Source: Candidatus Dojkabacteria bacterium (GTDB taxonomy: Bacteria > Patescibacteriota > Dojkabacteria > SC72). From it: a DNA stretch of 64,000 bases. The position numbers and the translations under genes were made by a program. Below the pieces are notes generated by a model, which had not been told where the DNA came from, did no database searches, and saw only the letters and a list, made by a program, of their open reading frames with translations. This document shows, in pieces, positions 3,401-59,677 of this stretch. The stretch's first letter is position 1, and every line of letters starts with the position of its first letter. The DNA lies in NCBI GenBank assembly GCA_012513575.1, contig JAAZBX010000002.1:104574-168573 (forward strand), read 5' to 3'.

Positions 3401-3467
3401 GGGAAAGAGTCCCAATCGACCATTGACTGCCCCCCAGAAAACTGTCATTAAGTTAAATAACTAAGCA

Positions 3468-8915: not shown

Positions 8916-8930
8916 CGTTAAAGTTTCTGA

Positions 8931-12501: not shown

Positions 12502-12526
12502 CATTGTAAAGATTTAAATGTGGAAA

Positions 12527-14664: not shown

Positions 14665-14666
14665 TG

Positions 14667-20131: not shown

Positions 20132-20200
20132 AACCCTAGGACAGCTAAGAGCTATCTGATATTCACTTTAAATACACAAAACACGTTATCTAGTAAGAAC

Positions 20201-38300: not shown

Positions 38301-38432
38301 AGAAGGGAAGAGGCAAAAGAAAAATTGATTGAATCACTTGAGAGTGTTAAGAAGGGAAATTTCAAAGCAACACCTGGGTTTGTATGCAGATTCTGTGATT
38401 TTAACTCTATTTGTGAGTACGCCGATTTATAG
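35328..38432 (+). CDS. UvrD/PcrA-family helicase fused to a C-terminal RecB/Cas4-like PD-(D/E)xK nuclease with a 4-Cys cluster
   Basis: Helicase motif I is AGAGTGKTS, and there are DEFQD and later helicase motifs. The C-terminus has GKIDRIDLI, IVDYKTG, QLPLY, and cysteines (ESCPRKY...CRFCDFNSIC). Confidence 0.8.
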   Translation: MGQVNLNEKQKQAVEFNKGDLLIIAGAGTGKTSVITERIIHIINSGWAKPSEILALTFTEKAAQEMQTRIDERMEYGYDEPYISTFHSFCDHILRNEGYNIGLDGSYSLLSTAQAYIFLRKHLYDMPFKTLLPKGNPTKFLNDFLKHVSRLQDEDVSPEEYEKYAKSLPKSTDDLKEEYTRVNELAQGYKKYSELKIAESKVDFGDLILLTIKLFREKPNILAKYRNKYKYILVDEFQDTNYTQNVLVNILKGDGKTPFLTVVGDDDQAIYKFRGAAISNILQFKERYPKAFEIVLTENYRSKQEILDSAHTLIRHNDPNRLEVTERIDKSLVARGVFEDDRNSVQLMVSQYESIEAERVAEEIMKLTGYGELVKLREDRDSQTFDEKGQSTFLDSQTPGKDAKYKFSDIAILVRANSNADIFVQEFRNRGIRYKLGGSRGLYFREEIKNLIAFLRVLTDFTDEVSMYKLLTMGIWNFSPREYMELIQLARMEKLTLLELLEAEWKIKIGEESFSEGDFKEIDSKIMDKILSPQAIAGVSTLLMLLDTSMKKIKEGRSLVEILYDFVMNSRYVGEFLDKETPESIFAISNINKFFELVKNYEKDNPDSNIYEYVDYLNYSIQIGESPLVDSVDMDELNAVNIMTVHSAKGLEFPVVFLVNLVSERFPTKARGDALPIPDELIKETGIENLDEKEANIQEERRLFYVGATRAKEKLYLTASNFYGDAKRKKKPSIFLHEILDRSVDEDFKEKVQVNDFTDDIIHLTSIEGLDQSIIPSKDIMNIVKRFSYSQLNVYESCPRKYEYAYVLRIPTKGNASTAFGTTIHNTLKDFYTLLQRSKESLGGIVQAPTKDDLLALYGKNWVRSGYESKKQEEIRKKEGRKIMGQYFDKVFSLEESPLRLEESFSVHFADVVFSGKIDRIDLIKSGEGIQEVCIVDYKTGSEKSASDIKKDLQLPLYALVAEEKFGLKVVGAKYVFVETGNCVDVNVSQDRREEAKEKLIESLESVKKGNFKATPGFVCRFCDFNSICEYADL

Positions 38433-38441: not shown

Positions 38442-38789
38442 ATGATGATTAATATTTTTCTTACAATTAATAATTTTTTGGTTCAAAGAGCATATGCGCA
38501 GAGTATAGGGGCAAGCTTAGAAGAGGGTTTGTCTGTTGATTCTGACACCAACGTGGATAGCTTGTTAGAAAGAATTGTGAGGATAGCTGTTCCTGTTGCA
38601 GTTATTTCAGCATTTGTTCTTCTGTCTTATGGGGGATATTTGCTAATCTCAAGTCAAGGGAATCCAGATAAATTGCAGGAAGCAAGATCTATTATTACCA
38701 ATGCAATTATCGGACTTTTAGTTGTTGTCCTTTCAGTAGCTATACTTTTGATAATTAGTGGGACTTTTGATTTAAATATATTTAATTAA
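38442..38789 (+). CDS. Small VirB2/TrbC-like T4SS-pilin-family membrane protein, paralog 1 of 6
   Basis: It has a signal-like N-terminus and a hairpin of two hydrophobic helices joined by the conserved loop YLLISSQGNPDKLQEA...IIGL. Confidence 0.55.
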   Translation: MMINIFLTINNFLVQRAYAQSIGASLEEGLSVDSDTNVDSLLERIVRIAVPVAVISAFVLLSYGGYLLISSQGNPDKLQEARSIITNAIIGLLVVVLSVAILLIISGTFDLNIFN

Positions 38790-38794
38790 AAAAT

Positions 38795-39100
38795 ATGGTA
38801 AACATTTCAAGACTTCTATCAACATTTGGATTGGCCTCACTTGATGGGAATACTGATAATATAGATAGTGTATTAGAAAACAAAATCAAGCCTGGTTTGA
38901 ACTGGATAGTCGCAATGGCAGTGGTTGCTGCTGTGGCTATGATTATTGTCGCAGGGTATAACCTAATCACTTCTAACGGAGATCCCGAAAAGATACAAAA
39001 GGGAACAAAAGGTATAACAGCAGCGATCATTGGTCTGGTAATTGCTTTCTCTGCAAGAATAATCTTAGTGTTTATTTTAGAGAAATTAGGTCTTCAATAG
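38795..39100 (+). CDS. Small VirB2/TrbC-like T4SS-pilin-family membrane protein, paralog 2
   Basis: Its conserved loop is AGYNLITSNGDPEKIQKG...IIGLV. Confidence 0.55.
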   Translation: MVNISRLLSTFGLASLDGNTDNIDSVLENKIKPGLNWIVAMAVVAAVAMIIVAGYNLITSNGDPEKIQKGTKGITAAIIGLVIAFSARIILVFILEKLGLQ

Positions 39101-39164
39101 TATTGTTTTTTAAATTATACTATTGTACTATTTGTTAGGCTTAAATAAATTAATTCATTACTAA

Positions 39165-39515
39165 ATGAAAAGTTTAAAATATTCTTTGACCCCGATTTTG
39201 TTTGGTTTGTTTCTCCCCTCAGCGGTTTTTGCAGACGGAATAATTACTGGTATCCTTCCAGAGGGTCCTAATACAACAATTCCAATTTTAATCAAAACAG
39301 TTTTGAATTTTGCCATTGGATTTGCAGTTGTTGTTTGTGTCGCTATCTTAATCTTCGCAGGCTATTCATATATGACAGCAAATGGTGATGAAGACAAAAT
39401 CCAGAAAGCAACAAAATCCTTAACATGGGCAATCATTGGATTGGTAGTATGTTTTGTTGCAATTCTCTTAGTAAGATTTGTAGGGGAAAAGATTGGAATT
39501 GATTTTGGAGCTTAA
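39165..39515 (+). CDS. Small VirB2/TrbC-like T4SS-pilin-family membrane protein, paralog 3
   Basis: It has a signal peptide (AVFA|DG) and the conserved loop AGYSYMTANGDEDKIQKA...IIGLV. Confidence 0.55.
   Translation: MKSLKYSLTPILFGLFLPSAVFADGIITGILPEGPNTTIPILIKTVLNFAIGFAVVVCVAILIFAGYSYMTANGDEDKIQKATKSLTWAIIGLVVCFVAILLVRFVGEKIGIDFGA
39297..39515 (+). repeat. Nucleotide-level duplicated block, copy A (3' two-thirds of pilin paralog 3)
   Basis: It is about 93 percent identical to 39781-40000 by eye alignment. It starts at the shared ...CAGTTTTGAATTTTGC... and runs to the stop codon. Confidence 0.7.
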
Positions 39516-39649
39516 GACTTTATTCAAGAGCAATTGACATTTCTTCACGACATCGGAGTGTTCTTTATTAACCACTCTTGTTGAATTCCTAATATTGTTA
39601 TTATATAATGAGCATTAAGATAATTAATATTAAATAAATAATTAAAACA

Positions 39650-40000
39650 ATGAAGATTTCAAAATTATCGGTTGCTCCAATTTATTTGGCTATGGCAAAT
39701 GCGACTGCGGTATATGCAGATGCTTCTGGATTTCTTCCAGACGACCAGACCGGAGGGAAAACACTCCCAGGAATTATCCAGACAGTTTTGAATTTTGCTA
39801 TTGGATTTGCAGTTGTTGTTTGTGTTGCCATCTTAATCTTCGCAGGCTATTCATACATGACAGCAAATGGAGATGAGAACAAAATCAAGAAAGCTACAAC
39901 ATCTTTAACATGGGCAATCATTGGATTGGTAGTATGTTTTGTTGCAATTCTCTTAGTAAGATTTGTAGGAGAAAAGATTGGAATTGGTTTTGGAGTTTAA
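39650..40000 (+). CDS. Small VirB2/TrbC-like T4SS-pilin-family membrane protein, paralog 4
   Basis: It has a signal peptide (AVYA|DA). Its C-terminal 72 aa are nearly identical to paralog 3. Confidence 0.55.
   Translation: MKISKLSVAPIYLAMANATAVYADASGFLPDDQTGGKTLPGIIQTVLNFAIGFAVVVCVAILIFAGYSYMTANGDENKIKKATTSLTWAIIGLVVCFVAILLVRFVGEKIGIGFGV
39781..40000 (+). repeat. Nucleotide-level duplicated block, copy B (3' two-thirds of pilin paralog 4)
   Basis: It matches 39297-39515. The 5' thirds of the two genes, which encode the mature N-terminal region, are unrelated. Confidence 0.7.
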
Positions 40001-40036
40001 GAAATCCATTGAATAAGATATAAGAATACATTCGGA

Positions 40037-40309
40037 ATGGAATGGTTAAGTTTTGTTGAAAAGTTTAATAGGGTGGAGTTCTCCTCATTGCAAGATTTTA
40101 TTGCGAATCTGTTTAATGTTGCAATGTCATTTTCAGTAGTTATTGTGGTAATTGCATTAATCATAGCTGGCTTCAAATATATGTTTTCTAAAGGAGATGG
40201 AGACAAGGTAAAGGAGGCGACTAGGAGTTTAATCTTTGCCCTTATCGGTTTGGTAATTGTATTTCTTTCTCCAACTATTGTAAAATTTGTGATAGATAAA
40301 TTTCTTTAA
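40037..40309 (+). CDS. Small VirB2/TrbC-like T4SS-pilin-family membrane protein, paralog 5
   Basis: Its conserved loop is AGFKYMFSKGDGDKVKEA...LIGLV. Confidence 0.5.
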   Translation: MEWLSFVEKFNRVEFSSLQDFIANLFNVAMSFSVVIVVIALIIAGFKYMFSKGDGDKVKEATRSLIFALIGLVIVFLSPTIVKFVIDKFL

Positions 40310-40316
40310 TTAAGAA

Positions 40317-40640
40317 ATGTCAAAAAATTTAAATAGAACTATTCTGCTACTTACTTCTCCTTTTCTTTTCATCTCGAAGGTATATGCTGAGGATCCTCCA
40401 GAAATTAATGCTGAAACTATCGACAAATTAATAAATACCATTACTAGTAGATTGCTTCCAATCGCTGGTCTGTTGTCATTCATATTCATCGTTTACGGAG
40501 CATATATGTGGATAATATCTGCTGGGGATCCAGATAAAATTAAAAAAGCTCAGGGTACTTTACAGTGGTCAATTATCGGCCTTATCTTTGTAATTATCGT
40601 CTCCCTTATCCTCAGGGCAGTTCTTGATGCAGTTGCATAA
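40317..40640 (+). CDS. Small VirB2/TrbC-like T4SS-pilin-family membrane protein, paralog 6
   Basis: It has a signal peptide (KVYA|ED) and the conserved loop YGAYMWIISAGDPDKIKKA...IIGL. Confidence 0.55.
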   Translation: MSKNLNRTILLLTSPFLFISKVYAEDPPEINAETIDKLINTITSRLLPIAGLLSFIFIVYGAYMWIISAGDPDKIKKAQGTLQWSIIGLIFVIIVSLILRAVLDAVA

Positions 40641-41037
40641 AATGAAAAACCATTCTTACAAATCAGAAGATTTTTTCAAAAGCCAAGGCTATGCAAGGAA
40701 TGGTATTAAGTTGATTTACAAGAATGAGAGAAATTTCCGAATAGAGCTTGTATTCACGCTTTTGGTCATACTTGCTGGGGTATTTTTCAAGGTTACTCAT
40801 TTTGAGTGGATAGCTTTAAGTTTAGTAATTTCCATGGTTCTAATATCCGAGACAATAAATAGTGCAATTGAAGCTTTGTGCGATACTGTTACTCAGGATT
40901 TTAAGATTAATGTAAAGTATGCTAAGGATGTTAGTGCTGGAGCAGTATTGGTAAGTTCCCTTCTTTCGGTTATCACAGGCCTTATTATCTTTCTCCCATA
41001 TATCATTGAACTTGCTCAAAACATCTTTTTGAGATAA
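40624..41037 (+). CDS. dgkA: DgkA-family lipid kinase (diacylglycerol or undecaprenol kinase)
   Basis: It has the motif blocks NERNFRIELVF, SETINSAIEALCD and YAKDVSAGAVL, and three TM helices. The start may be at 40627. Confidence 0.7.
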   Translation: MMQLHKMKNHSYKSEDFFKSQGYARNGIKLIYKNERNFRIELVFTLLVILAGVFFKVTHFEWIALSLVISMVLISETINSAIEALCDTVTQDFKINVKYAKDVSAGAVLVSSLLSVITGLIIFLPYIIELAQNIFLR

Positions 41038-41053
41038 TGGTATAATTAGGGCG

Positions 41054-42931
41054 ATGAAAGGTATGCCCCAATTCAAAAAAACTTTATTTATCTCTATCAC
41101 TTTACTTTTAGGAATTTTCCTCTTTTTCAATTCTCCAGTATATTCCCAATCAGTTTCAGATCTTGAAAAAGAGATAGAGGAAAGTAATAGGGCAATTTCA
41201 GAGAAAGAGAGTATTTTAGGAAATATTGAGAAGAGGATAGCGGAGATAAAGGGAGGAAATCAAACTTTAAGTCAGAAGATTCAGTTGATGACTGATGAGA
41301 TTAATAAGGTTAAGGATACAATTTCACAAAAAGAGATAGAGATTGAAACAAAGGGTAAGGAGATTGAGAGTAAGCAAGAGCAGCTTAATATTCGAAAAGA
41401 AACTTTAGATTTAGTTTCGGCTGAGTTGTATATGGAGACAAGGAATAGGGTGTCAACCTTTTTCCTTTCAGATTGGTCTGATTTAGTAAGAAACTTTTAC
41501 CTTAAAAGAAATATAGTTTCTGATTTGAGACATCAGGTTGAGATGATTAGTGGAGAGTTTAGTTCTTTAGCTGAGGCAAAGGAGTTGTTAGATTCTGAGA
41601 AGAGTCTTTTAGATACACAGAAGAAGGAGTTGGATGATTCCTTGGGTATTTTAGCAACAGAGAAAGCAAAGTTACAGGCAGAACTTAGTAAGCAGTATGC
41701 ACAGAAGGGGAGTTTGAGTTCAGAGATTACAGATTTAACAAAGAAGGTATCTCAATTACAGGCGGCATTGATAGCAGCAAGAGGGGCTGGAACTATATCT
41801 TCGGGGGGTAGTACGGGGACTGTTCCTGGGACTTCGATTTCTCAAGCACCAGCAGGCTATTTTGGAGTTTTCTCTATTGGTGCATATACGCATAGAAACG
41901 GTATGAGTCAGTGGGGAGCGAGGGCGAGGGCTGATGCAGGACAATCTACAGGACAGATACTAAGCTTTTACTATCCTAACACAAGAATCTCAAATGGTGT
42001 AGTTAATTCTAATGGAATTCCCCAACCTTTAATGCAGAATATTAATGTGAATAATGTAGGTACTCTTTCATTTGAGGATTACTATCTATTGGGTATACAG
42101 GAGATGCCGGAGAGTTGGAATATGGAAGTATTGAAAGCCCAAGCAATTGTTGCTAGAACCTACGCCGTGTGGTACGTTAACAATGGGAATGGAAGATGGG
42201 TAAACAAAACTCTTGTTAACTCTATTTGCACATCCCAGAGTTGTCAAGTATTTAATACCCCACTCAAAGCTGGGGCTTGGAGAACCGCTGTACAGCAAAC
42301 AAGAGGGCAAATTTTGACAGACTCAAGTGGATCTGCAGTAATGGCTGAATATGCAGCTGTACATGGAGCATGGGGGAATTGGCAGGGGCAAGCTACAGGT
42401 TGGGACACACAGAGTGGAAGTGGAGATAATTGGTTTACCGATGCTTGGGATAAAATTTCTGGTGTTAACTGGTTTTATAGATCTTGGTATATCAATGGAT
42501 CTGGTTATTCTGGAGAAACATGCGGACATTCACCATATCTTTCTCCATCAGAAATGTTAATCATTCTTAATGCCTATTATGTAAAGAAAGGTGAGGGTTT
42601 AAGGATGACTCCCGATTTGTCAAGATTGCTTCCAAGCGATTATGGGAAGTGCCCAGGAGGAGCAAGGGATGATGACTTCGGTCGAACAGACAAAGTCCCA
42701 TACAGTTTATCTGAATTACAGGGATTGTTATCAAATCCAGTAACATCTATATCCTCTGTATATGCTTCCTTTGCTAACGGACAAACCACAAATGTATATT
42801 TTCAAACAAATAGAGGCCTTATATCAATGTCCGGCTTTGCCTTCAAAGATATATACAATCAAATGGCTCCAGGTCATATGAGAATACAACAACAATCTTC
42901 CTATGCTTTCTTCAATATAGAAAAGAAATAG
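41054..42931 (+). CDS. Secreted coiled-coil protein with a C-terminal SpoIID/LytB-like peptidoglycan-remodelling domain
   Basis: It has a signal peptide and about 200 aa of coiled coil (an EnvC-like N-terminus). The SpoIID-like block is LKAQAIVARTYAVWYV. Confidence 0.55.
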   Translation: MKGMPQFKKTLFISITLLLGIFLFFNSPVYSQSVSDLEKEIEESNRAISEKESILGNIEKRIAEIKGGNQTLSQKIQLMTDEINKVKDTISQKEIEIETKGKEIESKQEQLNIRKETLDLVSAELYMETRNRVSTFFLSDWSDLVRNFYLKRNIVSDLRHQVEMISGEFSSLAEAKELLDSEKSLLDTQKKELDDSLGILATEKAKLQAELSKQYAQKGSLSSEITDLTKKVSQLQAALIAARGAGTISSGGSTGTVPGTSISQAPAGYFGVFSIGAYTHRNGMSQWGARARADAGQSTGQILSFYYPNTRISNGVVNSNGIPQPLMQNINVNNVGTLSFEDYYLLGIQEMPESWNMEVLKAQAIVARTYAVWYVNNGNGRWVNKTLVNSICTSQSCQVFNTPLKAGAWRTAVQQTRGQILTDSSGSAVMAEYAAVHGAWGNWQGQATGWDTQSGSGDNWFTDAWDKISGVNWFYRSWYINGSGYSGETCGHSPYLSPSEMLIILNAYYVKKGEGLRMTPDLSRLLPSDYGKCPGGARDDDFGRTDKVPYSLSELQGLLSNPVTSISSVYASFANGQTTNVYFQTNRGLISMSGFAFKDIYNQMAPGHMRIQQQSSYAFFNIEKK

Positions 42932-42980
42932 TCATACTTAATTAGCTACTCTAAATCAATAAATTATGTTATCCTAATTT

Positions 42981-43598
42981 ATGAATGAGGTAGAAAAGAT
43001 CAATATCCCAGAAAAATTCCAAAAAATAGATAGAACATTCCTAAACCATCTTCGTAATGAAAAGGGCAGTGTATTTATGCCATTCCCTAGAAATACGTCA
43101 TTTTTAGGAAAAGAGGATGATGAAAGCGTAGTCTTAATCCTAAGAAAACATTGGCAATTTCTTCTACCCACAATCCTAGAATGTATCTTCTTACTTCTTC
43201 TACCTTTCATCCTTTCAGTGATAATTCCAAATTTGCCCAACAGAGGACTATTCGTCTTCGCTCTCTTTCTTGTATCCCTTTTAATTTCCTTATCCCTATT
43301 AATATATCGATATGTAAGATGGTTTTACAATGTAAATATCATAACTGACCAAAGAGTAATTGATATGGATTTTGAAACTCTTTTCTCACACAAAACAACT
43401 GAAGCAAGACTGGAGAAGGTAGAGGATATTACTTTCAAGCAAATTGGAATCCTCTCAAACCTGTTTGATATTGGTTCAATATATATTCAAACGGCGGGAG
43501 CAAAATCAGAAATAGAGTTTAAGGGAATTCACAATCCCAAACAGGTTCAAGACATACTCTCTGATCTGCTAGAGTCTAAAAAGAAAGGAGAAATTTAA
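42981..43598 (+). CDS. Membrane protein with a bacterial PH (YdbS/YdbT-like) domain
   Basis: It has two TM helices followed by a bPH_2-like region (DQRVIDMDFETLFSHKTTEARLEKVEDITFKQ...IYIQTAG). Confidence 0.45.
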   Translation: MNEVEKINIPEKFQKIDRTFLNHLRNEKGSVFMPFPRNTSFLGKEDDESVVLILRKHWQFLLPTILECIFLLLLPFILSVIIPNLPNRGLFVFALFLVSLLISLSLLIYRYVRWFYNVNIITDQRVIDMDFETLFSHKTTEARLEKVEDITFKQIGILSNLFDIGSIYIQTAGAKSEIEFKGIHNPKQVQDILSDLLESKKKGEI

Positions 43599-43864
43599 TG
43601 GTGGGAAATGAAATATTAGACAGTATAAATATGGTTGAGGTAAATACATTTGATTTTAATATGCTCCCTCTTCTTAAGGTTCCTTTTATACTCTTGTTAA
43701 TTGCAAATCTGTTTTTTGCATTAATTCTTTATCTTCGAATCAGAATTCTCTCTGACACATTTGTCACTTTTGAAAACAGGAGAATAAAGAGTATAGTTGT
43801 TATCTATCTAATAGGCTCACTTGTTCTCTCTTTATTTGCCTTACTCTTTTTAATATTATCATAG
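43598..43864 (+). CDS. Hypothetical small membrane protein
   Basis: It is an 88-aa ORF with two hydrophobic helices. Its start overlaps the previous stop. Confidence 0.3.
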   Translation: MVGNEILDSINMVEVNTFDFNMLPLLKVPFILLLIANLFFALILYLRIRILSDTFVTFENRRIKSIVVIYLIGSLVLSLFALLFLILS

Positions 43865-43867
43865 TAT

Positions 43868-46237
43868 ATGGAAATAACTGCTCAACAATACATCTCGAAT
43901 GAAAAAGATTCTCAAGCATATGTAACTACATATGCGAACCTTTTTGACTCTCGAAAAGAAAAAACAGGTAAAGAAGGAGATATTTATGTAATCTTGAAAA
44001 TGTCCTCAACAAAGAAATTGCCTCTTAGTAGGCTATCTAAATTTGTTTTAGACAGTCTTACTGATGGATATCTTTACTCTCACGAGAAAACAACTAACGA
44101 ATCCATGAAATCCTCTTTAGAGGACGGCTTTAACAAATTGAGGAGCTTAATCCAATCAGATAAAGATATTGAAGGGAGTAAAATTGATTTAACAATACTT
44201 GTATGTTTAGTTAAAAAGGAGGGTCTGTATATTGGCTCAATAGGAAAAGGTGAGATATATGTAATTAAAGGAGGAAAAGCAGTAAATATTGCTGAGATAA
44301 TGGAGAAAAAAGAGGCGAATACGGCGGGAGTGTTACTTGAAGAGAATGAAGCACTCCTTCTATCTACACAGGGCATCCTTTCAGAAAATTTGGCAGATAT
44401 CATTGTTGCATCAGAGCAAAAGAAAATTGCAAGAGAAATTACAAAAATTGGAGTAAATCTAAAGGGTGATAACGCGTTAATGACATTTGTAAATCAGAAG
44501 AAAAAAGAGGCCCCATCATTAATTGTAGAAACTTTGAAACCTGAAGTTGAAGAGGATAAACAACTACTCTCTGAGCAGGAAACCTCCGAAGGACAGGGTG
44601 GCGAGGAAGAGGTAAAAACCAAGAAGAAATTTAGCATAAAAGGATTTAGATTAAACAAATTAAAAGCAAGCGAGAATGTTCAGAGGTTTGGGAAAACATT
44701 TGCTCTAACGGCTTCTAAAGTATCTGAATTCGGAAAGAAAATGAAGCCTTCTTCCGAAACGGTAGGTAAATTCAAAAATATTCTGTTCAGAGTGGGCAAT
44801 ATATTTAAGAAAATTTGGGGTTTGATAAAGATGTTGTTTGCAAAAATTTGGCAGAAAATCTCACCTATACTTTCTAGAAAAAGATGGTTCAAGAAGGTAA
44901 TGTCTAAATATTCAGAGATAAGTTTTAAACAACCAAAAAGGACAGCGCAGACAGTTGGGGTGAGGATAGATGATTACAAAGTAAAGGACTTGAGGGGAAA
45001 GAGGATTAAGTTGGTATTGGGAATCCTCTTGATAATTGTATTGATTGTATTTGGAGTCAACTTCGCGATTCAAACAAAGGAAGCTAATGAGCTAAGCAAA
45101 GATGCGAATCAGAAGTTTGATCAGATTGAGAATTTCTTGGACAAAACTGAAAAAAATATTACTTCTGACAAGAGTAGTGCAGAGGTAGCATATTTTGAAG
45201 CAGGAAATATTCTTAAAGAGATACCATCCCCACTTAGAGAGAAAGAGATTGAGAGGGAAAAGAAGATAAATGAGAGGTATAGCTCTATTGGGGATCAACT
45301 ATTTAAGAAAGAGGGTTTTTCTACTGACTTGAAAAATCTTTCTGTATATATCAATCCAAGTCTTTCCTCTATGGGAGAAGGGGTTGATTTGGTAGACATT
45401 GATAAGTATATGGATAAAAATAATAGGGAGTATTTGTTACTTACAGATAAAGGAAAAAAGGTTGTTTATAAGATACTTATTGAAGATACTCCGACTGTGG
45501 AAGTTATTGCTGATGAAAAGAAATTAATTAAAACCCCTCAATATGTATCTGTCGGGGAAAGAGGGGTCTTTGTATATGATAAAGATGCTGGAGTTTTAAA
45601 ATCTTCGATTGCGGAGGATGGGACACTTACAAGCTTTATCTCTCTTCCTGGAATACTTGGCAGGGACATCCCTGATGATGTGATAGAAGATATGATTATT
45701 CTTACTGCCAATGATAATGTTTATCTTGTTTCTTCAACTCAAAAAGCTGTTCTAAGATCAACGGCTGTATATGGAGACAGGTACTCAATGCTAAACAAAT
45801 ATATAGAGAACCCTCTTTTTGAGAGAGCCAAAGATATCCATGGAGATTTCAGTACATATCTATTTGTTGAATCTGATGAAGGTATTTTACGATACATCTG
45901 GAGTTCCGTTGAGCAGAAACAGGTTCCTTCAGAATTAGGAATTACTGGACTCTCGGGGGGTGTAGGAAAGATTACTAAAGGATACACGTATGCAGATAGT
46001 ATGGATAGTGGATTGTATATGTTTGATTCTGAGGGGAGAAGATTTTTAAGGTTTGAAAAACCGCAAGAGAGTGCCTCAGATTTACGACACCCAAACCAGT
46101 TGTTACTACTAAAACAGTATGAATACAGGGGTGAGAATCAGGATGAATTTAAAAATGTAAAGGATTTTGTTGTTGACTATAAAGAAGAGAATATGTACGT
46201 TTTAGATGGTAATACCGTATGGAAAATTTCTTTGTAG
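43868..46237 (+). CDS. Large hypothetical membrane-anchored protein (789 aa)
   Basis: It has an N-terminal domain of about 200 aa, a Lys-rich linker, a central TM helix (GILLIIVLIVFGVNFAI) and a beta-rich C-terminal domain of about 400 aa. It has no catalytic motif. Confidence 0.4.
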   Translation: MEITAQQYISNEKDSQAYVTTYANLFDSRKEKTGKEGDIYVILKMSSTKKLPLSRLSKFVLDSLTDGYLYSHEKTTNESMKSSLEDGFNKLRSLIQSDKDIEGSKIDLTILVCLVKKEGLYIGSIGKGEIYVIKGGKAVNIAEIMEKKEANTAGVLLEENEALLLSTQGILSENLADIIVASEQKKIAREITKIGVNLKGDNALMTFVNQKKKEAPSLIVETLKPEVEEDKQLLSEQETSEGQGGEEEVKTKKKFSIKGFRLNKLKASENVQRFGKTFALTASKVSEFGKKMKPSSETVGKFKNILFRVGNIFKKIWGLIKMLFAKIWQKISPILSRKRWFKKVMSKYSEISFKQPKRTAQTVGVRIDDYKVKDLRGKRIKLVLGILLIIVLIVFGVNFAIQTKEANELSKDANQKFDQIENFLDKTEKNITSDKSSAEVAYFEAGNILKEIPSPLREKEIEREKKINERYSSIGDQLFKKEGFSTDLKNLSVYINPSLSSMGEGVDLVDIDKYMDKNNREYLLLTDKGKKVVYKILIEDTPTVEVIADEKKLIKTPQYVSVGERGVFVYDKDAGVLKSSIAEDGTLTSFISLPGILGRDIPDDVIEDMIILTANDNVYLVSSTQKAVLRSTAVYGDRYSMLNKYIENPLFERAKDIHGDFSTYLFVESDEGILRYIWSSVEQKQVPSELGITGLSGGVGKITKGYTYADSMDSGLYMFDSEGRRFLRFEKPQESASDLRHPNQLLLLKQYEYRGENQDEFKNVKDFVVDYKEENMYVLDGNTVWKISL

Positions 46238-46248
46238 TATAATAACGA

Positions 46249-46692
46249 ATGAAAATTTCTAATAAAAAGGCTACTTTCAATTATGAGATTATCGAATCTT
46301 TCGAAGCAGGTATTATTCTATCTGGAGCAGAAGTGAAGAGTATAAAGGAAGGAAGAGTAAATCTAACCGATTCATTTGTGAAGATTGTTAGCGGAGATTT
46401 GTATCTAATAAATGCGGAAGTCCCTCAATACAGATACAGTACAGACGAATTTTATGACTCAAGAAAATCAAGAAAGCTTCTTGTTAAAAGGTATGAACTT
46501 ATACAGATTGCTAGCAAACTAAAAGCGAAAAATCTCCTTTTGATACCTTTATCAATATATACTAAAGGGAAGTTGGTAAAAGTTGAAGTTGCATATGCCC
46601 GAGGAAGAAAAAGGCATGAGAAAAAACAAAGAGAGAAGGAAAGGGATTTGGATAGAGAATTGCTTTACGAAAGCCGTAAATTTGTTGTATAA
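46249..46692 (+). CDS. smpB: SsrA-binding protein SmpB
   Basis: The N-terminus and length match SmpB (KKATFNYEIIESFEAGIILSGAEVKSIKEG), and it has a basic C-terminal tail. Confidence 0.9.
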   Translation: MKISNKKATFNYEIIESFEAGIILSGAEVKSIKEGRVNLTDSFVKIVSGDLYLINAEVPQYRYSTDEFYDSRKSRKLLVKRYELIQIASKLKAKNLLLIPLSIYTKGKLVKVEVAYARGRKRHEKKQREKERDLDRELLYESRKFVV

Positions 46693-46700
46693 TTAAGACT

Positions 46701-47021
46701 ATGAGCGAAATAATAAGTACTGGAATAGAAAGGCATTCGGAAGTGATTAAAAATCCTTCTGAAAGAATCCCTTCAGAAGAGATTCCATCTGTTGAGTTGA
46801 GGGAAAATCCTCTTCCACAGTCAGTTGGTTCACTCACTCCTGCTTTGCAGTCAGAATTGCTTAAAACTACTGAAATCATCCCCCAAAAGGATAATATATG
46901 GGATGGATGTGGCTATACTCCAGGTCAAATAGAAGAGGGATCGACTGAAGCAATCAGTAGTGGTGATAGGGCACGAGATGTTGTTGCTAAAAAGATTTCG
47001 CAAGTCCCTGTTACGGAGTAA
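46701..47021 (+). CDS. Hypothetical small protein
   Basis: It is a 106-aa ORF rich in Ser, Glu and Pro, with no motif. Confidence 0.3.
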   Translation: MSEIISTGIERHSEVIKNPSERIPSEEIPSVELRENPLPQSVGSLTPALQSELLKTTEIIPQKDNIWDGCGYTPGQIEEGSTEAISSGDRARDVVAKKISQVPVTE

Positions 47022-47114
47022 TTTTCTTTTGTTTTTTACAACTCTTCCTAATATTTTTTTGATATACAACTATTTCTGTGATATCCTTAATGGATAATAT
47101 ATACTGTCCTTTCG

Positions 47115-49616
47115 ATGTATTCAGAAGATATTTATGCACAAGTATTTGGACCTACGCTAGGGGATTCGGGTAGCGAAACATCTACCAGGTACAAAGATAA
47201 TTCCTATGATACTTTCGATATGGATATTCCTTGGGGGTGGATTTCTTTCTCTATTGTTCTAATTGCTCTTGTTGTATTAGGCTTTTTGTATATAAAAAAG
47301 AATCTCAAGAAGAAGGATAGAAATGAAAAAGCGAGTGATGGTATTCTAATGGAAATTCGGGTACCTAAAGGCAATGAAGTAGAGATAGGATCAGCAGAAA
47401 AGATGTTTGCAAATCTTTATGGTATTGGAGGAAAAGCAGATGGGATAGCCGAGAAATTTAGTGTAAGTAACTGTGTCACTTTCGAAATGGTAGGATTGCC
47501 GGGAGAAATACGCTTCTTTGTTCATTGTCCTAGGAAATATGCAGATATGGTTGAGAAACAAATACTTGGCTCATATCAAGATGCAGATGTCTCTGTTGTA
47601 GACGAATATAATATATTTGCCCCGAAATCAGAAATTGCATATGCGAGGCTTGTATTAGACGAGGATTCATATGCCCCGATAAGAACAGCTGAAAGCTTTA
47701 CTGGCGATCCTATGGCAAATGTTCTTAGCACATTGAGTAAAATGTCTGAACAGGAGGGTGCGATTGTTCAACTTGCTGTTGCTCCTACTGACAATCGATG
47801 GCAGAAGAATGGTAGTGGGTTTGTTCAGAACATTGAAAAAAACAATTCTGATCCAGAAAAAAAGAAGATAAATGTCCCTCAAGAGAAGATACAAGCGATA
47901 AACAAGAAAATCTCTAAGCCTGGATTAATCTCAGAGATTAGAGTAGTTACTAGTGCTCCAACTAAGGAATTTGCAAAAATGCATTTAGATAATATTCTTG
48001 CTGCTTTTGATCAATATTCTAATCCAGGAATAAACAAGTTGAAGAAGAAAAAGATAAAAGATAGTGAAGAGATGTCTTTTCTTTACGATGTAATTTATAG
48101 AAGGACACCTGAGAGTGAGAAAAGTATTCTTAATATTGAAGAATTGGCTGGTTTGTACCACTTCCCAAACAAGGAAATTACAACACCAAATATTTTTTGG
48201 CTTCTTTCTAAAGAGCTTCCAGCAGGGAATGAGATAAGTTCGGATATAAATTCAAGAGACGCAATTTGGCTTGGGAATAACTATTTCCGAGGGAAAAGAA
48301 AGATGATTTGCTTCCAAAGAGATGACCGAAGAAGGCATGCGTACATTTTGGGACAAACAGGTACAGGGAAATCATGGTTGATGGTTAGAATGATGATTCA
48401 AGATATTTATAATGGTGATGGATGTTGTTTTATTGATCCTCACGGTTCAGCAGCTGAGATGCTTTTAGAGAGGATTCCACCTGAGAGGGCAGAGGATGTT
48501 ATCTATTTTAATGCTGCCGATTTTGACAGGCCATTTGGGTTGAATATTATGGAATTCTATAACGAGCAACATAAGCATCAAATTGTAAACAGCTTCTTAG
48601 CTTTGTTAATAAGATTGTTCGATCCAAATAATCAGGGGTATGCTGGGCCTGCTTTCCAGCAAGCAGTTAGAAACTCAATGCTTACAGCCATGTCTAAGCC
48701 AGGTTCTACATTGGTTGAAGTTGTGAGAATTCTTCAGGACGAAGAATGGGTCATGAACTACTGGTTACCCTTAATTAAAGATGAAATGGTACTTGGATAT
48801 TGGACTGACCAGGTAGCGAAGACGGATAAGAAGACAAAGGCTGAGTCATTGACTTACTTTATTTCTAAATTCGATAAATTTACAACAAACTTAGCCATTC
48901 GAAATATTATTGGTCAATCAGAATCATCTTTTGATTTTAGAAAGATCATGGATGAAGGAAAGATTCTCATTGTAAATCTTTCAAAAGGTTTGATAGGGGA
49001 TGAAAATATGTCTTTTCTTGGTTTGTTGATTGTTCAGAAACTTTTAGCTGCTGCTTTGAGTAGAGAGAACATCCCAGAAGAGGAGAGGAAGGATTTCTTT
49101 TTCTATGCAGATGAGTTCCAGAATTTTGCTACGGAGGAGTTTAATTCAATTCTTTCAGAGGCAAGGAAATATAGACTGAATTTGACACTAGCACATCAAT
49201 ATATTGGACAACTTCCAGAGGATATTAAGAATGCAGTTTTTGGAAATGTTGGTTCTCTCTTTATTACAAGGTGTAGTCCTGAAGATGCACAGTTCCTAGA
49301 GACTCCGTTTGAAGGGTATGTGACAGCTTCAGACATAGTCAATCAGTCGATGGGGCATTGGTATACCAAACTCCTTAATAACGGCTCGTATCCCTCTCCT
49401 TTCTCATTGGTAAGTTCGTATGGCCCGAAGTTTCCTGATTCGGGGTTTGATTTGCCAGTAAACAAAGAAGTTACAGGCATTATTAAGGAGATGTCTAGGA
49501 GAAAGTATGGTAGAGATGTAAATGTTGTTGCTAATGATATCCGCACTAGAGCTCAGCTTGATAGGAAGGAAGAGCAAGCTCAGAATCCAGCCCCTGGATT
49601 TCCCCCAATCTTTTAG
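47115..49616 (+). CDS. Membrane-anchored VirB4/TrbE-like or TraD/TrwB-like ATPase of the FtsK/HerA superfamily
   Basis: It has an N-terminal TM helix, a mid-protein Walker A motif (ILGQTGTGKSWLMV), a DPHG block (CFIDPHGSAAE) and a Walker B motif (FYADEFQNF). Its 833-aa length and the Walker A position fit VirB4. Confidence 0.55.
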   Translation: MYSEDIYAQVFGPTLGDSGSETSTRYKDNSYDTFDMDIPWGWISFSIVLIALVVLGFLYIKKNLKKKDRNEKASDGILMEIRVPKGNEVEIGSAEKMFANLYGIGGKADGIAEKFSVSNCVTFEMVGLPGEIRFFVHCPRKYADMVEKQILGSYQDADVSVVDEYNIFAPKSEIAYARLVLDEDSYAPIRTAESFTGDPMANVLSTLSKMSEQEGAIVQLAVAPTDNRWQKNGSGFVQNIEKNNSDPEKKKINVPQEKIQAINKKISKPGLISEIRVVTSAPTKEFAKMHLDNILAAFDQYSNPGINKLKKKKIKDSEEMSFLYDVIYRRTPESEKSILNIEELAGLYHFPNKEITTPNIFWLLSKELPAGNEISSDINSRDAIWLGNNYFRGKRKMICFQRDDRRRHAYILGQTGTGKSWLMVRMMIQDIYNGDGCCFIDPHGSAAEMLLERIPPERAEDVIYFNAADFDRPFGLNIMEFYNEQHKHQIVNSFLALLIRLFDPNNQGYAGPAFQQAVRNSMLTAMSKPGSTLVEVVRILQDEEWVMNYWLPLIKDEMVLGYWTDQVAKTDKKTKAESLTYFISKFDKFTTNLAIRNIIGQSESSFDFRKIMDEGKILIVNLSKGLIGDENMSFLGLLIVQKLLAAALSRENIPEEERKDFFFYADEFQNFATEEFNSILSEARKYRLNLTLAHQYIGQLPEDIKNAVFGNVGSLFITRCSPEDAQFLETPFEGYVTASDIVNQSMGHWYTKLLNNGSYPSPFSLVSSYGPKFPDSGFDLPVNKEVTGIIKEMSRRKYGRDVNVVANDIRTRAQLDRKEEQAQNPAPGFPPIF

Positions 49617-49660: not shown

Positions 49661-49737
49661 GGGAATATAGCTCAGGTGGTTAGAGCGCGGTTCTTATAAA
49701 GCCGTGGTCGGTGGTTCGAGTCCACCTATTCCCACCA
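49661..49737 (+). tRNA. tRNA-Ile (genomic anticodon TAT; decodes AUA)
   Basis: The acceptor strands GGGAATA and TATTCCC pair. The anticodon loop is CTTATAA, the T-loop is GGTTCGAGTCC, and the 3' CCA is encoded. Confidence 0.8.
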
Positions 49738-49750: not shown

Positions 49751-50341
49751 ATGAGGAGATACAAAATATCACAAATGCAAGAAAAAGATATACCCGAAGT
49801 AATTAACTTTCACAATAATTATCTAGGGGAGAGAGATTTTATTAATGAAAGAGAGCTATTAGATAGGTTGGAATCAAATAGGGGCATTTTTCTTGTTGCA
49901 AAAGATGAGGATGAGAAAATAGTTGGAATTAAGCTTTCCTTTATAGAGAACGATGTATGCCTAGGAAGGGGAGTCGCAGTAGATAAAAATTTCAGGAGAT
50001 TAGGAATCGGAAAGGAGTTAGTAAGTATTTTTGAATTAGAGTTGAAAAAATTTCCAGGTGTAAAAAAGTATGTATTTGCTTCATCAACACAAGAAGGAGT
50101 TCCATTTCATATCAAATTGGGATACAAACCTTTAATATTACTGCAATCAGAAAACAATGTTCTGTTAGAGGGTATGGATTTTAATATGTTTACAGTTAGA
50201 GAGAAGCTGTTTAATAAAGAATACAATGTATATCAAGTATACCTAGAATCAGATAAGGAGCTTGATTTAAACTTTCTTTCAAAGATTAAAGCTCAATATC
50301 CGGAATTAGAAATTACCTATTTATTTGAAAAAATTCTTTAA
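49751..50341 (+). CDS. GNAT-family N-acetyltransferase
   Basis: It has the acetyl-CoA-binding motif VAVDKNFRRLGIGKELV. Confidence 0.65.
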   Translation: MRRYKISQMQEKDIPEVINFHNNYLGERDFINERELLDRLESNRGIFLVAKDEDEKIVGIKLSFIENDVCLGRGVAVDKNFRRLGIGKELVSIFELELKKFPGVKKYVFASSTQEGVPFHIKLGYKPLILLQSENNVLLEGMDFNMFTVREKLFNKEYNVYQVYLESDKELDLNFLSKIKAQYPELEITYLFEKIL

Positions 50342-51871: not shown

Positions 51872-51946
51872 CGCGGGGTAGAGCAGTGGAAGCTCGTTAG
51901 GCTCATAACCTAAAGGTCGTCGGTTCGAGTCCGACCCCCGCAACCA
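51872..51946 (+). tRNA. Initiator tRNA-fMet (anticodon CAT)
   Basis: It has a C1xA72 acceptor mismatch, an A11:T24 D-stem pair, the anticodon loop CTCATAA, and an encoded CCA. Confidence 0.75.
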
Positions 51947-54162: not shown

Positions 54163-54236
54163 GGTGGGATAGCTCAGTCGGTTAGAGCATGGGATTCATA
54201 AACCCAAGGTCGGTGGTTCGATTCCACTTCCCACCA
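54163..54236 (+). tRNA. Elongator-type tRNA with anticodon CAT (Met, or Ile if lysidine-modified)
   Basis: The acceptor strands GGTGGGA and TCCCACC pair, with a G1-C72 pair. The anticodon loop is TTCATAA and the T-loop is GGTTCGATTCC. There is no encoded CCA. Confidence 0.8.
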
Positions 54237-59287: not shown

Positions 59288-59677
59288 ATGGAAGACAATA
59301 ATCAAAAAGAAAGGTCTGTTAAGTCTTTACTTACCAGTATATTGAGCTTGTTAATTGGTCTCTTTATCCTTGGTTCCATATTAAAAAATAGAAAGGATGA
59401 AGATTCTAAGTCAGAACTAAAGGAAAAGCCGCAAACTCCAGATAAAGAGGAAATTGTACAGGATAGTGTAAAGAATGTTGTTGGATTGAACAAAAGGCAA
59501 GCAGAAATTCTTGCAGAAGTAAGTAGGTTAAAAGAAATTACGCCTTCCGAATTGTATAAATTGCAACCAAATGTTTCTTCCAGAACTCTAAGAAGGGATA
59601 TGGATGTTCTTGTTAACAAAGGATTGGTAAGTCAAGATGGGAGCACAAAATCAACTAAGTATACATATTTAGGATGA
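59288..59677 (+). CDS. Small membrane-anchored protein with a C-terminal DeoR-like winged-helix motif
   Basis: It has an N-terminal TM helix. The C-terminus reads SSRTLRRDMDVLVNKGLV. Confidence 0.4.
   Translation: MEDNNQKERSVKSLLTSILSLLIGLFILGSILKNRKDEDSKSELKEKPQTPDKEEIVQDSVKNVVGLNKRQAEILAEVSRLKEITPSELYKLQPNVSSRTLRRDMDVLVNKGLVSQDGSTKSTKYTYLG

Follow-up and report, generated by a model that had tools for sequence, protein, structure and literature searches.

A predicted chromosomal array of VirB2/TrbC-type pilin genes and a coupling-type ATPase in Candidatus Dojkabacteria

The locus described here lies in a 64,000-nucleotide stretch of DNA (the window) from Candidatus Dojkabacteria (WS6), a member of the CPR/Patescibacteria. 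Its best explanation as a whole, which we consider probable, is a T4SS pilin array plus a coupling-type ATPase, the intervening genes being simply neighbors. The original prediction placed six tandem pilin genes at positions 38442-40640 of a chromosomal apparatus, and six co-directional open reading frames (ORFs) were found on the + strand at exactly those coordinates, about 35 kb from dnaA. Judging by their amino acid sequences, they are taken to be a chromosomal tandem array of VirB2/TrbC-type T4SS pilins, not type IV pilus pilins. A separate type IV pilus cluster, also predicted, was located at 13.7-20.6 kb and includes a PilD peptidase, T2SSE, T2SSF, and an N_methyl pilin. The array appears to be of the PF18895/Mycoplasma-ICE 'Mbov_0395' kind, typical of the monoderm-type (MPF_FATA-derived) Patescibacteria T4SS.

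An HMM search bore out the assignment to the VirB2/TrbC type. All six small proteins scored above the gathering score of the T4SS_pilin family PF18895 (E 3e-7 to 3e-13), and the best NCBIfam match of each was NF045849, a Mycoplasma ICE pilin-like family whose cut-off was exceeded by three of them. A profile made from the six proteins matched those six ORFs alone in the whole window, indicating that the array is not due to chance. The anticipated hairpin of two helices joined by a conserved loop was seen by hydropathy, with two strong hydrophobic segments in each pilin, and in the alignment, where the loop G(D/N)x(D/E/N)K(I/L/V) is followed 15 residues on by (A/S)(I/L)IGL. The loop motif is present in 192 and the IIGL motif in 235 of the 247 ORFs of relatives. 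The signal-like N-terminus that had been ascribed to all six proteins was recognizable in four, which have AxA-like leader ends (AYA|Q, VFA|D, VYA|D, and VYA|E), while inspection of pilins 2 and 5 revealed no obvious N-terminal leader.

Paralogue 1 (38442-38789, 115 aa, orthogroup 1, leader ending AYA|Q), which heads the array in 45 related loci, has two hydrophobic helices according to hydropathy and scored 30.7 bits with PF18895 (cut-off 26.6) and 26 bits with NF045849. Paralogue 2 (38795-39100, 101 aa, orthogroup 2; PF18895 E 1.2e-11; NF045849 34 bits) is without a clear cleavable leader and has positional orthologues in relatives. Paralogue 3 (39165-39515, 116 aa, leader VFA|D; PF18895 E 3.5e-13; NF045849 44.1 bits, cut-off 40) belongs to orthogroup 3, the amplified one, and its position is occupied by one to four copies among relatives. 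Paralogue 4 (39650-40000, 116 aa; PF18895 E 5.7e-13; NF045849 50.2 bits) is a lineage-specific duplicate of paralogue 3. The duplication is mosaic; identity between the two reaches 93.5% over the last 216 nt but only 30% over the first 44 aa. Paralogue 5 (40037-40309, 90 aa, leaderless; PF18895 E 1.3e-12; NF045849 44.2 bits), with orthologues that are likewise about 91 aa long, is the most TrbC-like of the six and the one that exceeded the cut-off of TrbC PF04956 (34.2 bits, cut-off 27.9). Paralogue 6 (40317-40640, 107 aa, leader VYA|E; PF18895 E 2.6e-11; NF045849 37.7 bits) ends the array in relatives. The array therefore consists of five orthogroups in an order that is conserved across Dojkabacteria (1-2-3-5-6 in 35 of the 48 pilin-bearing loci). 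Tandem amplification takes place only at the third position, and extra copies in Dojkabacteria loci are nearly always of type 3/4. The N-terminal part of the pilins is about twice as variable as the hairpin core (mean pairwise identity 23-33% versus 49-58%).

The gene located 6.5 kb downstream of the array (47115-49616, + strand) codes for a TM-anchored T4SS ATPase of 833 aa with a TM helix at about aa 40-62, a DUF8128 domain at about aa 75-350, and a T4CP-like P-loop domain at about aa 395-760. The motifs noticed in the original prediction, GQTGTGKS (Walker A, 48351-48374), DPHG, and DEFQNF (Walker B DEFQ, 49110-49121), are present and invariant in 35 homologues. T4CP matches were obtained in Pfam and NCBIfam, the Pfam scores being barely above cut-off (25.8 versus 20.1 and 21.1 versus 20.5), and the PDB sequence matches were DotL and TrwB. 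The motor-domain family HMM scored higher with TrwB (29.5 bits) than with TrsK (19.8) or TrsE/VirB4 (15.7) and did not match TrwK or TcpF; hhalign of the motor family against TrwB gave a 95% probability. These comparisons support its inclusion in the T4SS ATPase group and not in HerA or FtsK proper. The description of the enzyme as VirB4/TrbE-like was partially correct. The DUF8128 domain is predicted to adopt a fold that resembles the VirB4 N-terminal domain, but the motor is, by its sequence, T4CP-like (TrwB/VirD4/TraD) and not VirB4, and plasmid homologues are found beside genuine VirB4 proteins. The AF2 model of the motor is poor (pLDDT <50), and the confident structural statement is limited to the N-terminal domain. 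In a Bacillus plasmid, a homologue (247 bits) occupies the coupling-protein slot adjoining a Replic_Relax relaxase, and a separate AAA_10 VirB4 is located 3 kb away. In haloarchaeal plasmids, the conjugation modules hold a PF18895 pilin gene, three genes of unknown function, and a VirB4 gene (CD1110, 176 bits), and the DUF8128-like protein and the T4CP-like ATPase are encoded separately. The 833-aa protein probably corresponds to the second ATPase found in these Bacillus and haloarchaeal modules. Just upstream of the ATPase gene there is an ORF of 106 aa (46701-47021, + strand), whose position is conserved, with a small gene also in Dojkabacteria, L090, L093, and Microgenomatia, but whose sequence is not; its alignment has no conserved residues and it has no Pfam or NCBIfam match.

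The remaining genes that separate the ATPase from the array are also on the + strand. The DgkA-type lipid kinase gene (40624-41037; DAGK_prokar E 3e-33), which likely starts at ATG 40642 rather than at the overlapping TTG, is missing from this site in about half of the related loci. It is followed by a gene for a secreted coiled-coil cell-wall hydrolase with a SpoIID/LytB domain (41054-42931; SpoIID PF08486 E 1e-16; TIGR02669 94.7 bits, cut-off 83.3), which adjoins the 789-aa family in L090, L093, L101, and L102, and by a bPH_2 membrane protein gene (42981-43598; 22.6 bits, cut-off 22) with orthologues in L093 and L102. On the 3' side of the latter is the gene for a DUF5657 protein of 88 aa with two TM segments (43598-43864; PF18901 E 1.5e-8), an arrangement conserved in Dojkabacteria. 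All ORFs listed in the original prediction were found in place, but this gene and the 106-aa ORF had been overlooked. The 789-aa membrane protein (43868-46237), thought to have an unknown fold and to merit comparison with VirB6 and VirB8, was instead modeled (AF2, mean pLDDT 78) as a cytoplasmic PP2C-like domain (aa 1-210), a disordered linker (212-294), a TM helix (about aa 381-401), a helical stalk, and a six-bladed beta-propeller (aa 481-789). Foldseek matched this model to tPphA/PstP PP2C (E 5e-9) and NHL/paraoxonase propellers (E 8e-8). The PP2C-like domain, for which no match was found at the sequence level, is probably inactive, and the protein evolves fast (37-55% identity where the ATPase has 75-80%). 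The interleaved smpB (46249-46692; SmpB PF01668 E 7e-44) encodes the trans-translation factor, an unrelated housekeeping function; a tmRNA gene is located at 12095-12502. The SpoIID-like, bPH, DUF5657, 789-aa, DgkA, and SmpB proteins have no similarity to any T4SS part, and these genes are regarded as envelope or housekeeping neighbors, not demonstrated machine parts. Promoter and terminator scans of the locus gave results at chance level.

The 64-kb window and 13 kb upstream in the same species do not contain VirB4, VirB3, VirB6, TrsD, or a relaxase, and VirB8 is also missing from the window, in agreement with the original prediction that neither VirB6 nor VirB8 would be recognizable at the locus. 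Alone, the locus is an incomplete T4SS. A T4SS has been published for Dojkabacteria, and a survey scores VirB4 as 'Yes' for two Dojkabacteria assemblies, so the gene set probably represents one piece of a dispersed T4SS and not the minimal self-contained machine first proposed; a partner VirB4 elsewhere in the genome is presumed from this survey. We find it unlikely that the whole 11-kb stretch is a T4SS-like machine that does without VirB4, VirB6, and VirB8, in which the SpoIID-like protein would be a VirB1 analogue, the bPH, DUF5657, and 789-aa proteins a channel or scaffold, and the 833-aa protein the sole motor. This possibility gains from the window having no other T4SS gene, from the VirB4-like N-terminal fold and mid-protein Walker A of the ATPase, and from the co-directional genes, which are separated by gaps of -17 to 134 nt and keep their order in about 60 Dojkabacteria species and partly in L090, L093, L101, and L102. 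In L090, the order pilin-SpoIID-789aa-smpB-ATPase is kept even though the ATPase is only 45% identical, a retention that may stem from function and not from inertia. However, the housekeeping genes addA, smpB, xerC, divIC, efp, ftsH, and polA share the same conserved order within an addA...polA block that is collinear in about 60 species, and synteny here does not discriminate for T4SS membership. Nothing ties the SpoIID, bPH, 789-aa, and DgkA proteins to a T4SS. In Microgenomatia and CP064982 the ATPase is away from the pilins, SpoIID, and smpB, and unrelated genes are inserted in the block in L090, L101, and L102; genes that interrupt it in lineages other than the present one include sbcCD, a GNAT, and a pseudouridine synthase. 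The fold of the 789-aa protein and the plasmid-borne ATPase relatives that accompany a true VirB4 also speak against it.

The two elements of the preferred reading were likewise weighed separately. The pilin-like proteins could be membrane-resident two-helix proteins, forming a channel or stalk or serving the envelope in a role unrelated to secretion, with an array that provides surface variation only. Gram-positive-type T4SSs generally lack pili, a filament of these proteins has so far not been purified from Patescibacteria, and the tubes that cryo-EM revealed in a cultivated relative were only suggested to be T4SS pili; two of the six pilins lack a cleavable leader and VirB4 is not nearby. 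We nevertheless deem this very unlikely in view of their clear affiliation with the conjugative pilin family, TrbC included, the presence of the family in haloarchaeal conjugation modules, its best NCBIfam match to a Mycoplasma ICE pilin-like family, the essential array of Southlakia, and a variable N-terminus next to a conserved core, the pattern expected for an exposed polymer subunit. There is a similarly slim chance that the ATPase is a housekeeping FtsK-like DNA pump acting in segregation or dimer resolution with a XerC-type recombinase and DivIC. In Dojkabacteria, L090, L093, and L102 its gene converges on xerC, with divIC next in line; its conservation is very strong (identity of 69-95% in the class and about 50% between classes), and the window lacks a relaxase. 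Almost the whole phylum has T4CP homologues, including genomes that lack virB4, and the Southlakia homologue was published as dispensable for epibiotic growth. On the other hand, xerC is not adjacent in Microgenomatia and CP064982, an FtsK_SpoIIIE Pfam match was found in only one of about 240 listed homologues, the protein has a single TM helix versus four in FtsK with no gamma domain detected, and the plasmid homologues sit within conjugation modules.

If the locus encodes a T4SS pilin array and a coupling-type ATPase, analogy with VirB2/TraA pilins and the essential Southlakia array suggests how the pilins may work. The pilins would enter the membrane via Sec, four of the six would be cleaved by signal peptidase, and all would be held as membrane hairpins for extraction by a VirB4 ATPase encoded elsewhere. 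They could then assemble into a pilus or stalk touching the host bacterium, with the variable N-terminus facing outward and the conserved loop lining the lumen. The 833-aa protein would act as a P-loop motor of hexameric type, anchored in the membrane, belonging to the T4SS coupling-protein kind, and fused to DUF8128. Since no relaxase accompanies it in the window, its substrate, which it would feed or pull, is presumably something else than a plasmid strand piloted by a relaxase.

The locus had been proposed as an undescribed system, a claim that does not hold. Publications on Patescibacteria already describe divergent VirB2-like pilins in tandem arrays of 2-11 (Wang 2023; Quinonero-Coronel 2025; PMC10633639, PMC12102498; review PMC12857230), and such arrays have been reported in 383 assemblies. 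VirD4-type T4CP homologues have likewise been published, 5,713 of them in 2,918 of 3,035 genomes, mostly distant from virB4. The Southlakia array, which is essential and located within a T4SS cluster (PMC10633639, PMC12102498), has six pilin genes, as does the Dojkabacteria window. The locus is therefore a further example of the kind of pilin array published in 2023-2025. The new details that it contributes are the five positionally conserved orthogroups, the third being the amplified one. By analogy, the ancient separation of the five paralogues suggests that they differ in role, for instance as major and minor subunits, and are not simply redundant.

The ORFs that the original prediction placed in the region 38442-49616 were all found on the + strand, each at its predicted position. 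Six small ORFs (38442-40640) encode proteins of 115, 101, 116, 116, 90 and 107 amino acids and are followed, in the same orientation, by genes for a DgkA-type kinase, a 625-aa SpoIID-like protein, a bPH membrane protein, an 88-aa DUF5657 protein, a 789-aa membrane protein (43868-46237), SmpB, a 106-aa ORF and an 833-aa ATPase (47115-49616). Two of them, the DUF5657 gene and the 106-aa ORF located before the ATPase gene, had not been listed in the original prediction. The addA gene lies upstream, with 9 nt between its end and the first pilin gene, and the intergenic gaps across 38442-49616 are all short (-17 to 134 nt). Promoter and terminator scans of 38.0-50.4 kb returned counts equal to those of shuffled sequences (43 versus 42.5 and 8 versus 6.5, respectively), so the operon structure cannot be inferred from them.

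The six small proteins are VirB2/TrbC-type pilins, as had been proposed. All of them scored above the gathering cut-off of the Pfam T4SS_pilin family, PF18895 (30.7-49.9 bits versus 26.6; E 3e-7 to 3e-13), and pilin 5 was the only one that also exceeded the cut-off of TrbC/VirB2, PF04956 (34.2 versus 27.9). The top NCBIfam family for all six was NF045849, the Mycoplasma-ICE "Mbov_0395 pilin-like conjugal transfer protein", whose cut-off was passed by three of them. Hydropathy analysis showed that each protein has two segments of 25-31 residues (KD 2.4-3.35) with about 12-15 polar residues between them, which is the topology of VirB2/TrbC-type pilins (about 70-120 aa, two hydrophobic helices and a short polar loop). 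In the alignment, the polar loop carries the motif G(D/N)x(D/E/N)K(I/L/V), followed 15 residues on by (A/S)(I/L)IGL. Candidate leaders, recognized as AxA-like sites after a hydrophobic N-terminus, are present in pilins 1, 3, 4 and 6; no AxA-type leader is evident in pilins 2 and 5. The other pilins are 20-33% identical to pilin 1, and a profile built from the six matched those six ORFs only within the window.

A scan of genome contigs returned almost only Dojkabacteria (64-88% identity) and one outlier with 45% identity, which was the seed of the second protein search that provided the cross-class loci. About 60 Dojkabacteria loci were retrieved and their pilins were compared with the six in the window. 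The commonest array has five genes (38 loci). Of the 48 loci with pilins, 35 show the best-match order 1-2-3(or 4)-5-6. Additional copies are nearly always of type 3/4, with up to four found consecutively, and pilins 3 and 4 are one such duplication: the last 216 nt of their genes are 93.5% identical and the first 44 residues of the proteins are 30% identical. In every orthogroup, conservation of the N-terminal part, which comprises the leader and the mature N-terminus, is about half that of the hairpin core (23-33% versus 49-58%). The pattern is consistent with five subunits that are old and not redundant, each with a rapidly evolving, exposed N-terminus, and with one amplification-prone position. 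That five orthogroups keep one and the same order throughout a class speaks for subunits with different roles, and the confinement of amplification and N-terminal divergence to one position of the array marks a candidate exposed or variable subunit.

Pilin arrays of this kind have been described in other Patescibacteria. An essential T4SS cluster that includes a series of predicted pilins was reported in Candidatus Southlakia epibionticum ML1, a member of the Saccharimonadia (Wang et al. 2023, PMC10633639). A survey by Quinonero-Coronel et al. (2025, PMC12102498) searched 3,035 genomes of Patescibacteria, using PF18895 among other profiles, and identified 441 VirB2 arrays of 2-11 genes each in 383 assemblies, with a mean identity of ~25% within arrays. 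VirD4-type T4CP homologues numbered 5,713 in 2,918 genomes and usually lay at a distance from virB4, and relaxases were nearly absent. In the same survey, comF, recG and radA were found near T4SS genes in class ABY1 (PMC12102498). Its preprint version includes Dojkabacteria among the T4SS-bearing lineages, and this group was barely sampled, with five mentions in the available part of the supplementary file. Like the window, Southlakia (SEML1_0006-0019) and the surveyed loci have tandem, divergent VirB2-like pilins (six in Southlakia and six here) that belong to PF18895 and are chromosomal, origin-proximal and without a relaxase (PMC10633639, PMC12102498, PMC12857230). Of the features by which a patescibacterial T4SS is recognized, a tandem divergent chromosomal VirB2-like array without a relaxase is found in this locus. 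The Southlakia array lies inside a virB4 cluster with VirB1-, VirB3- and VirB6-like genes, whereas the window array is flanked by addA and the SpoIID-like gene and has no VirB4 within the window. Given the published arrays (PMC10633639, PMC12102498), the claim of an undescribed system had to be abandoned. The Dojkabacteria locus is a further example of a published kind that adds comparative constraints, and what is new here lies in the details of the comparison and in one observation, at the level of the fold, on an uncharacterized domain.

Several parts of a canonical T4SS were sought near the array. VirB4, VirB3, VirB6, VirB8, TrsD and a relaxase were all absent from the scanned ORFs of the window and from the 13 kb upstream in the same species, and neither region has a patescibacterial-clade VirB4 with TrsD, VirB3/PrgI or VirB6 nearby. 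The original statement that VirB6, VirB8, VirB9, VirB10 and VirB11 are not recognizable was borne out within the window. Since Table S1 of the survey scores two Dojkabacteria assemblies as VirB4-positive, the VirB4 genes are, on the strength of that publication, probably separate from this locus and located elsewhere in the genome.

Judging by its sequence, the C-terminal half of the 833-aa ATPase is coupling-protein-like. The Pfam families T4SS-DNA_transf (25.8 versus 20.1) and TrwB_AAD_bind (21.1 versus 20.5) exceeded their cut-offs by small margins in this half, DUF87 was also above cut-off, the best NCBIfam families were VirD4-like CD1115 and TraD, and the best PDB sequence matches were DotL and TrwB. 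An HMM of the ATPase family gave 29.5 bits with TrwB, 19.8 with TrsK and 15.7 with TrsE (VirB4), and did not match TrwK or the Bacillus TcpF-like VirB4. None of the VirB4 profiles (CagE_TrbE_VirB, AAA_10, TIGR00929, CD1110) matched the 833-aa protein over most of its length: AAA_10 stayed below its cut-off (E 0.037), and CD1110 gave 21.7 bits on a stretch of 69 residues (cut-off 325). The motifs GQTGTGKS and DEFQ are invariant in 35 of 35 homologues, and no relaxase is linked to the gene within the window.

DUF8128 is not a domain of canonical T4CPs, which have two TM helices. The 833-aa protein has one predicted TM helix (aa 40-62), and precomputed annotations place a DUF8128 domain (PF26449) at the N-terminus. 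Most of the ~240 listed homologues carry T4CP families or TraG-D_C, and a minority carry DUF8128 only, with or without DUF87. In the AF2 model, the N-terminal domain ahead of the P-loop domain has a VirB4-type fold; the model was obtained from 35 overly similar homologues, and the pLDDT of its motor domain is below 50, too low to judge whether it has the all-alpha domain and other T4CP-specific features. Comparison of the DUF8128 profile with TrwK, TrsE, TrsD and the TcpF-like VirB4 using hhalign gave a probability of 0.8% or less, and a literature search for DUF8128 found nothing. The protein combines a coupling-type motor with a fused VirB4-NTD-like domain and a single TM helix. The original label, "VirB4/TraD-like", was half right on each count: the VirB4-like portion is the predicted N-terminal domain and the motor is of the coupling type, with no full-length match to a VirB4 profile. 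The small ORFs found upstream of the ATPase gene in seven lineages were also aligned, and no residue beyond the initial Met is conserved.

Full-length homologues of the ATPase were detected by tblastn in 601 plasmid records. The Bacillus subtilis plasmid NZ_CP032854, which carries a Tcp/ICE-type module, encodes a full-length homologue with both domains (247 bits). This homologue adjoins a Replic_Relax relaxase, followed by TcpC, TcpE and a separate AAA_10 VirB4, and the module has no PF18895 pilin. Unlike it, the window locus has no relaxase and no Tcp proteins, and is not plasmid-borne. The haloarchaeal plasmids of Halorussus limi (NZ_CP096663) and Haloterrigena (pHTS138, NZ_CP069189) encode a PF18895 pilin similar to the Dojkabacteria pilins (phmmer E 1e-5), as well as a DUF8128-like protein and a T4CP-like ATPase that jointly match the 833-aa protein (E 1e-29; HMM 111 and 163 bits). 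Their operon also encodes a genuine VirB4 (CD1110, 176 bits). A module of seven genes, for the PF18895 pilin, three unknowns, VirB4, the DUF8128-like protein and the T4CP-like ATPase, is found in three haloarchaeal plasmid loci (L095, 4392-16051; L098, 147-12051; L099, 6765-15845), where the NCBI labels of its parts are limited to pilin, hypothetical or TraM-recognition proteins. It differs from the window in that it is plasmid-borne, DUF8128 is a separate polypeptide and there is one pilin gene instead of an array. The location of the plasmid homologues beside a separate VirB4 indicates that the 833-aa protein is the counterpart of the second, coupling-type ATPase in monoderm/archaeal conjugation modules.

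The best-studied Gram-negative T4SS is that of R388, in which TrwL is VirB2, TrwK is VirB4 and TrwB is the T4CP. Compared to R388, the window has no VirB3, 5, 6, 7, 8, 9, 10 or 11, it belongs to a monoderm cell and it has six pilin genes versus one; the DUF8128 domain has no sequence similarity to the N-terminal domain of TrwK. A set of 29 T4SS proteins encoded by pSK41, R388 and the Bacillus and Halorussus plasmids served as references in a phmmer comparison with all retrieved CPR ORFs, in which the haloarchaeal pilin alone gave consistent matches (57 ORFs, Dojkabacteria pilins), and TrsK and TrsL gave one marginal match each (E 0.004 and 0.002). The nearest curated family to the window pilins is NF045849, by its NCBIfam name an ICE-borne conjugal-transfer family of Mycoplasma, and this match shows that the window pilin type goes with monoderm MPF_FATA-type elements. 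A 105-aa protein of pSK41 (L097, 25115-25432), labeled "CagC family type IV secretion system protein" in RefSeq, had no NCBIfam match. Its gene is just upstream of the annotated trsD and of the gene for a DUF87-domain ATPase, which we take to be the VirB4 (TrsE) of the plasmid. Should the CagC label be correct, a Gram-positive MPF_FATA-type system would contain a VirB2-like gene.

The genes between the pilins and the ATPase had been taken as parts of the same machine, which they probably are not. The order addA, pilins, SpoIID, bPH, DUF5657, 789aa, smpB, ATPase, xerC, divIC, efp, ftsH, polA is conserved as a whole, and its inner part, being conserved along with the rest, gives no evidence of a functional unit. 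DgkA is found at its site in only about half of the loci. In the lineage with the 45% identical ATPase (L090), sbcCD separates the pilins from SpoIID, and two loci from other lineages (L101 and L102) have unrelated genes ahead of the ATPase gene. None of the neighbors discussed here accompanies the ATPase (~50% identical) in two Microgenomatia-type loci (one of them Roizmanbacteria) or in the complete genome CP064982. An 834-aa gene located upstream of the ATPase in CP064982 was considered and is not a homologue of the 789-aa gene. VirB1-type T4SS cell-wall hydrolases are recognized by an SLT lytic transglycosylase or CHAP/amidase domain encoded in the T4SS cluster. The 625-aa protein, for which a VirB1 role was proposed, has a genuine SpoIID/LytB domain (TIGR02669, 94.7 bits versus 83.3) behind a long coiled coil and no SLT or CHAP domain. 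In L093, L101 and L102 its gene keeps its place next to bPH and the 789-aa family irrespective of pilins, and its position co-varies with the 789-aa gene and not with the pilins.

The predicted structure of the 789-aa protein (pLDDT 78) consists of a cytoplasmic PP2C-like domain, a linker, a TM helix, a helical stalk and a six-bladed beta-propeller. Foldseek matched the PP2C-like domain to tPphA, PstP and SpoIIE (E 5e-9). Instead of the VirB6 or VirB8 suggested for comparison, the model recalls membrane PP2C proteins such as PstP. In sequence searches PP2C_2 reached 15 bits versus a cut-off of 24, and a profile of the family found nothing among PDB sequences, PP2C included. No DGHGG-type motif was seen by eye in the sequence, and there are no recognizable catalytic motifs.

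The window starts at the replication origin region, with khpB/jag (R3H+KH), yidC and rnpA on the minus strand followed by dnaA (3468-4898) and dnaN (5352-6473) on the plus strand (1004-6473 in all); rpmH and yidD were additionally called in the origin neighborhood of the same species (L007). The pilin array is thus ~35 kb from dnaA, on the leading strand, and the cumulative GC skew rises steadily from ~34 kb to the window end. Between dnaN and a response regulator, a minus-strand gene (6485-7030) encodes a 181-aa protein of five DUF4116 repeats (257 bits), which is missing at the same site in some contigs with identical YidC (L009, L010). Two adjacent ORFs at 8187-9587 were suspected to be paralogues, an idea rejected on comparison. 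As claimed, the region 13.7-20.6 kb holds a separate and ordinary T4P cluster (13698-20632, minus strand) with a PilD-like A24 peptidase, a T2SSF platform protein, a T2SSE ATPase and an N_methyl pilin; it also holds a 642-aa ORF (15133-17061) and several small ORFs without a Pfam match. The tmRNA gene (12095-12502) has the tag peptide VKNKIVAFAEQLKAAVSAPLYNYNFA and is 34 kb from smpB (46249-46692), which encodes its partner. A 968-aa single-chain Type ISP restriction-modification enzyme is encoded at 28575-31481 on the minus strand (Type_ISP_C, 251 bits, and N6_Mtase/Eco57I methylase). Directly after the ATPase gene there is a tRNA-Ile gene with anticodon TAT, which reads AUA directly (49661-49737), and two tRNA-Met(CAT) genes are found at 51872-51946 and 54163-54236. 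A GNAT acetyltransferase gene (49751-50341) lies between the ATPase gene and xerC, and its absence from the same position in related Dojkabacteria loci (L001, L004) indicates a lineage-specific insertion into the collinear block. A 607-aa ATP-dependent DNA ligase of the archaeal/eukaryotic type (59674-61497) adjoins polA, a position kept in the related Dojkabacteria loci examined (L001-L006).

In the one species tested, epibiotic growth requires the patescibacterial T4SS and its pilin array, the function of which has been termed completely unknown. Published ideas about its substrate are effector export or the import of host macromolecules. A 2026 preprint on a cultivated relative describes tubes, perhaps T4SS pili, as well as host RNA uptake, and proposes that the former may provide access to the latter's substrate. 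In the Dojkabacteria, the pilins would be inserted by Sec as hairpins, and a VirB4 encoded elsewhere would pull them out and polymerize them to form a pilus or stalk extending to the host cell. With no relaxase, the coupling-type ATPase might handle some other substrate. Different DNA-end-processing or recombination genes flank the pilin array in three lineages: the AddA-type helicase-nuclease in the window (35328-38432), SbcD-SbcC in L090 (1783-4964) and RmuC in L093 (2224-3408). This could be a weak hint at nucleic-acid uptake, and could be due to chance within a collinear block.

With respect to the origin of the pilins, it was suggested in the survey that MPF_FATA systems lack VirB2-like pilins, which perhaps were co-opted from elsewhere (PMC12102498). 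The Mycoplasma ICE family being the nearest curated one and the presence of PF18895 beside a CD1110-type VirB4 in haloarchaea suggest that the pilin travelled with a monoderm/archaeal system. This is a modest refinement that differs from the published suggestion. A broader reading, which we consider improbable, is that DUF8128 ATPases are an unrecognized third kind of T4SS motor, with a coupling-like P-loop domain and a kept or fused VirB4-type N-terminal domain, common to Patescibacteria and to Bacillus-type and haloarchaeal plasmids. In the relaxase-less Dojkabacteria, such a motor and a heteropolymeric pilus of five anciently diverged pilin paralogues would pull host DNA or RNA into the epibiont, and the flanking DNA-end-processing enzymes would handle the imported strands; the arrival of the pilins with the monoderm/archaeal MPF_FATA-type system, and not by co-option from diderm T4SSs, would be a corollary. 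The 833-aa ATPase is a coupling-type motor with a VirB4-like N-terminal domain, and its relatives adjoin the same pilin family in monoderm/archaeal conjugation modules. The constraints obtained from this locus bear on the origin of the pilins and help to select target genes in cultivable Patescibacteria.
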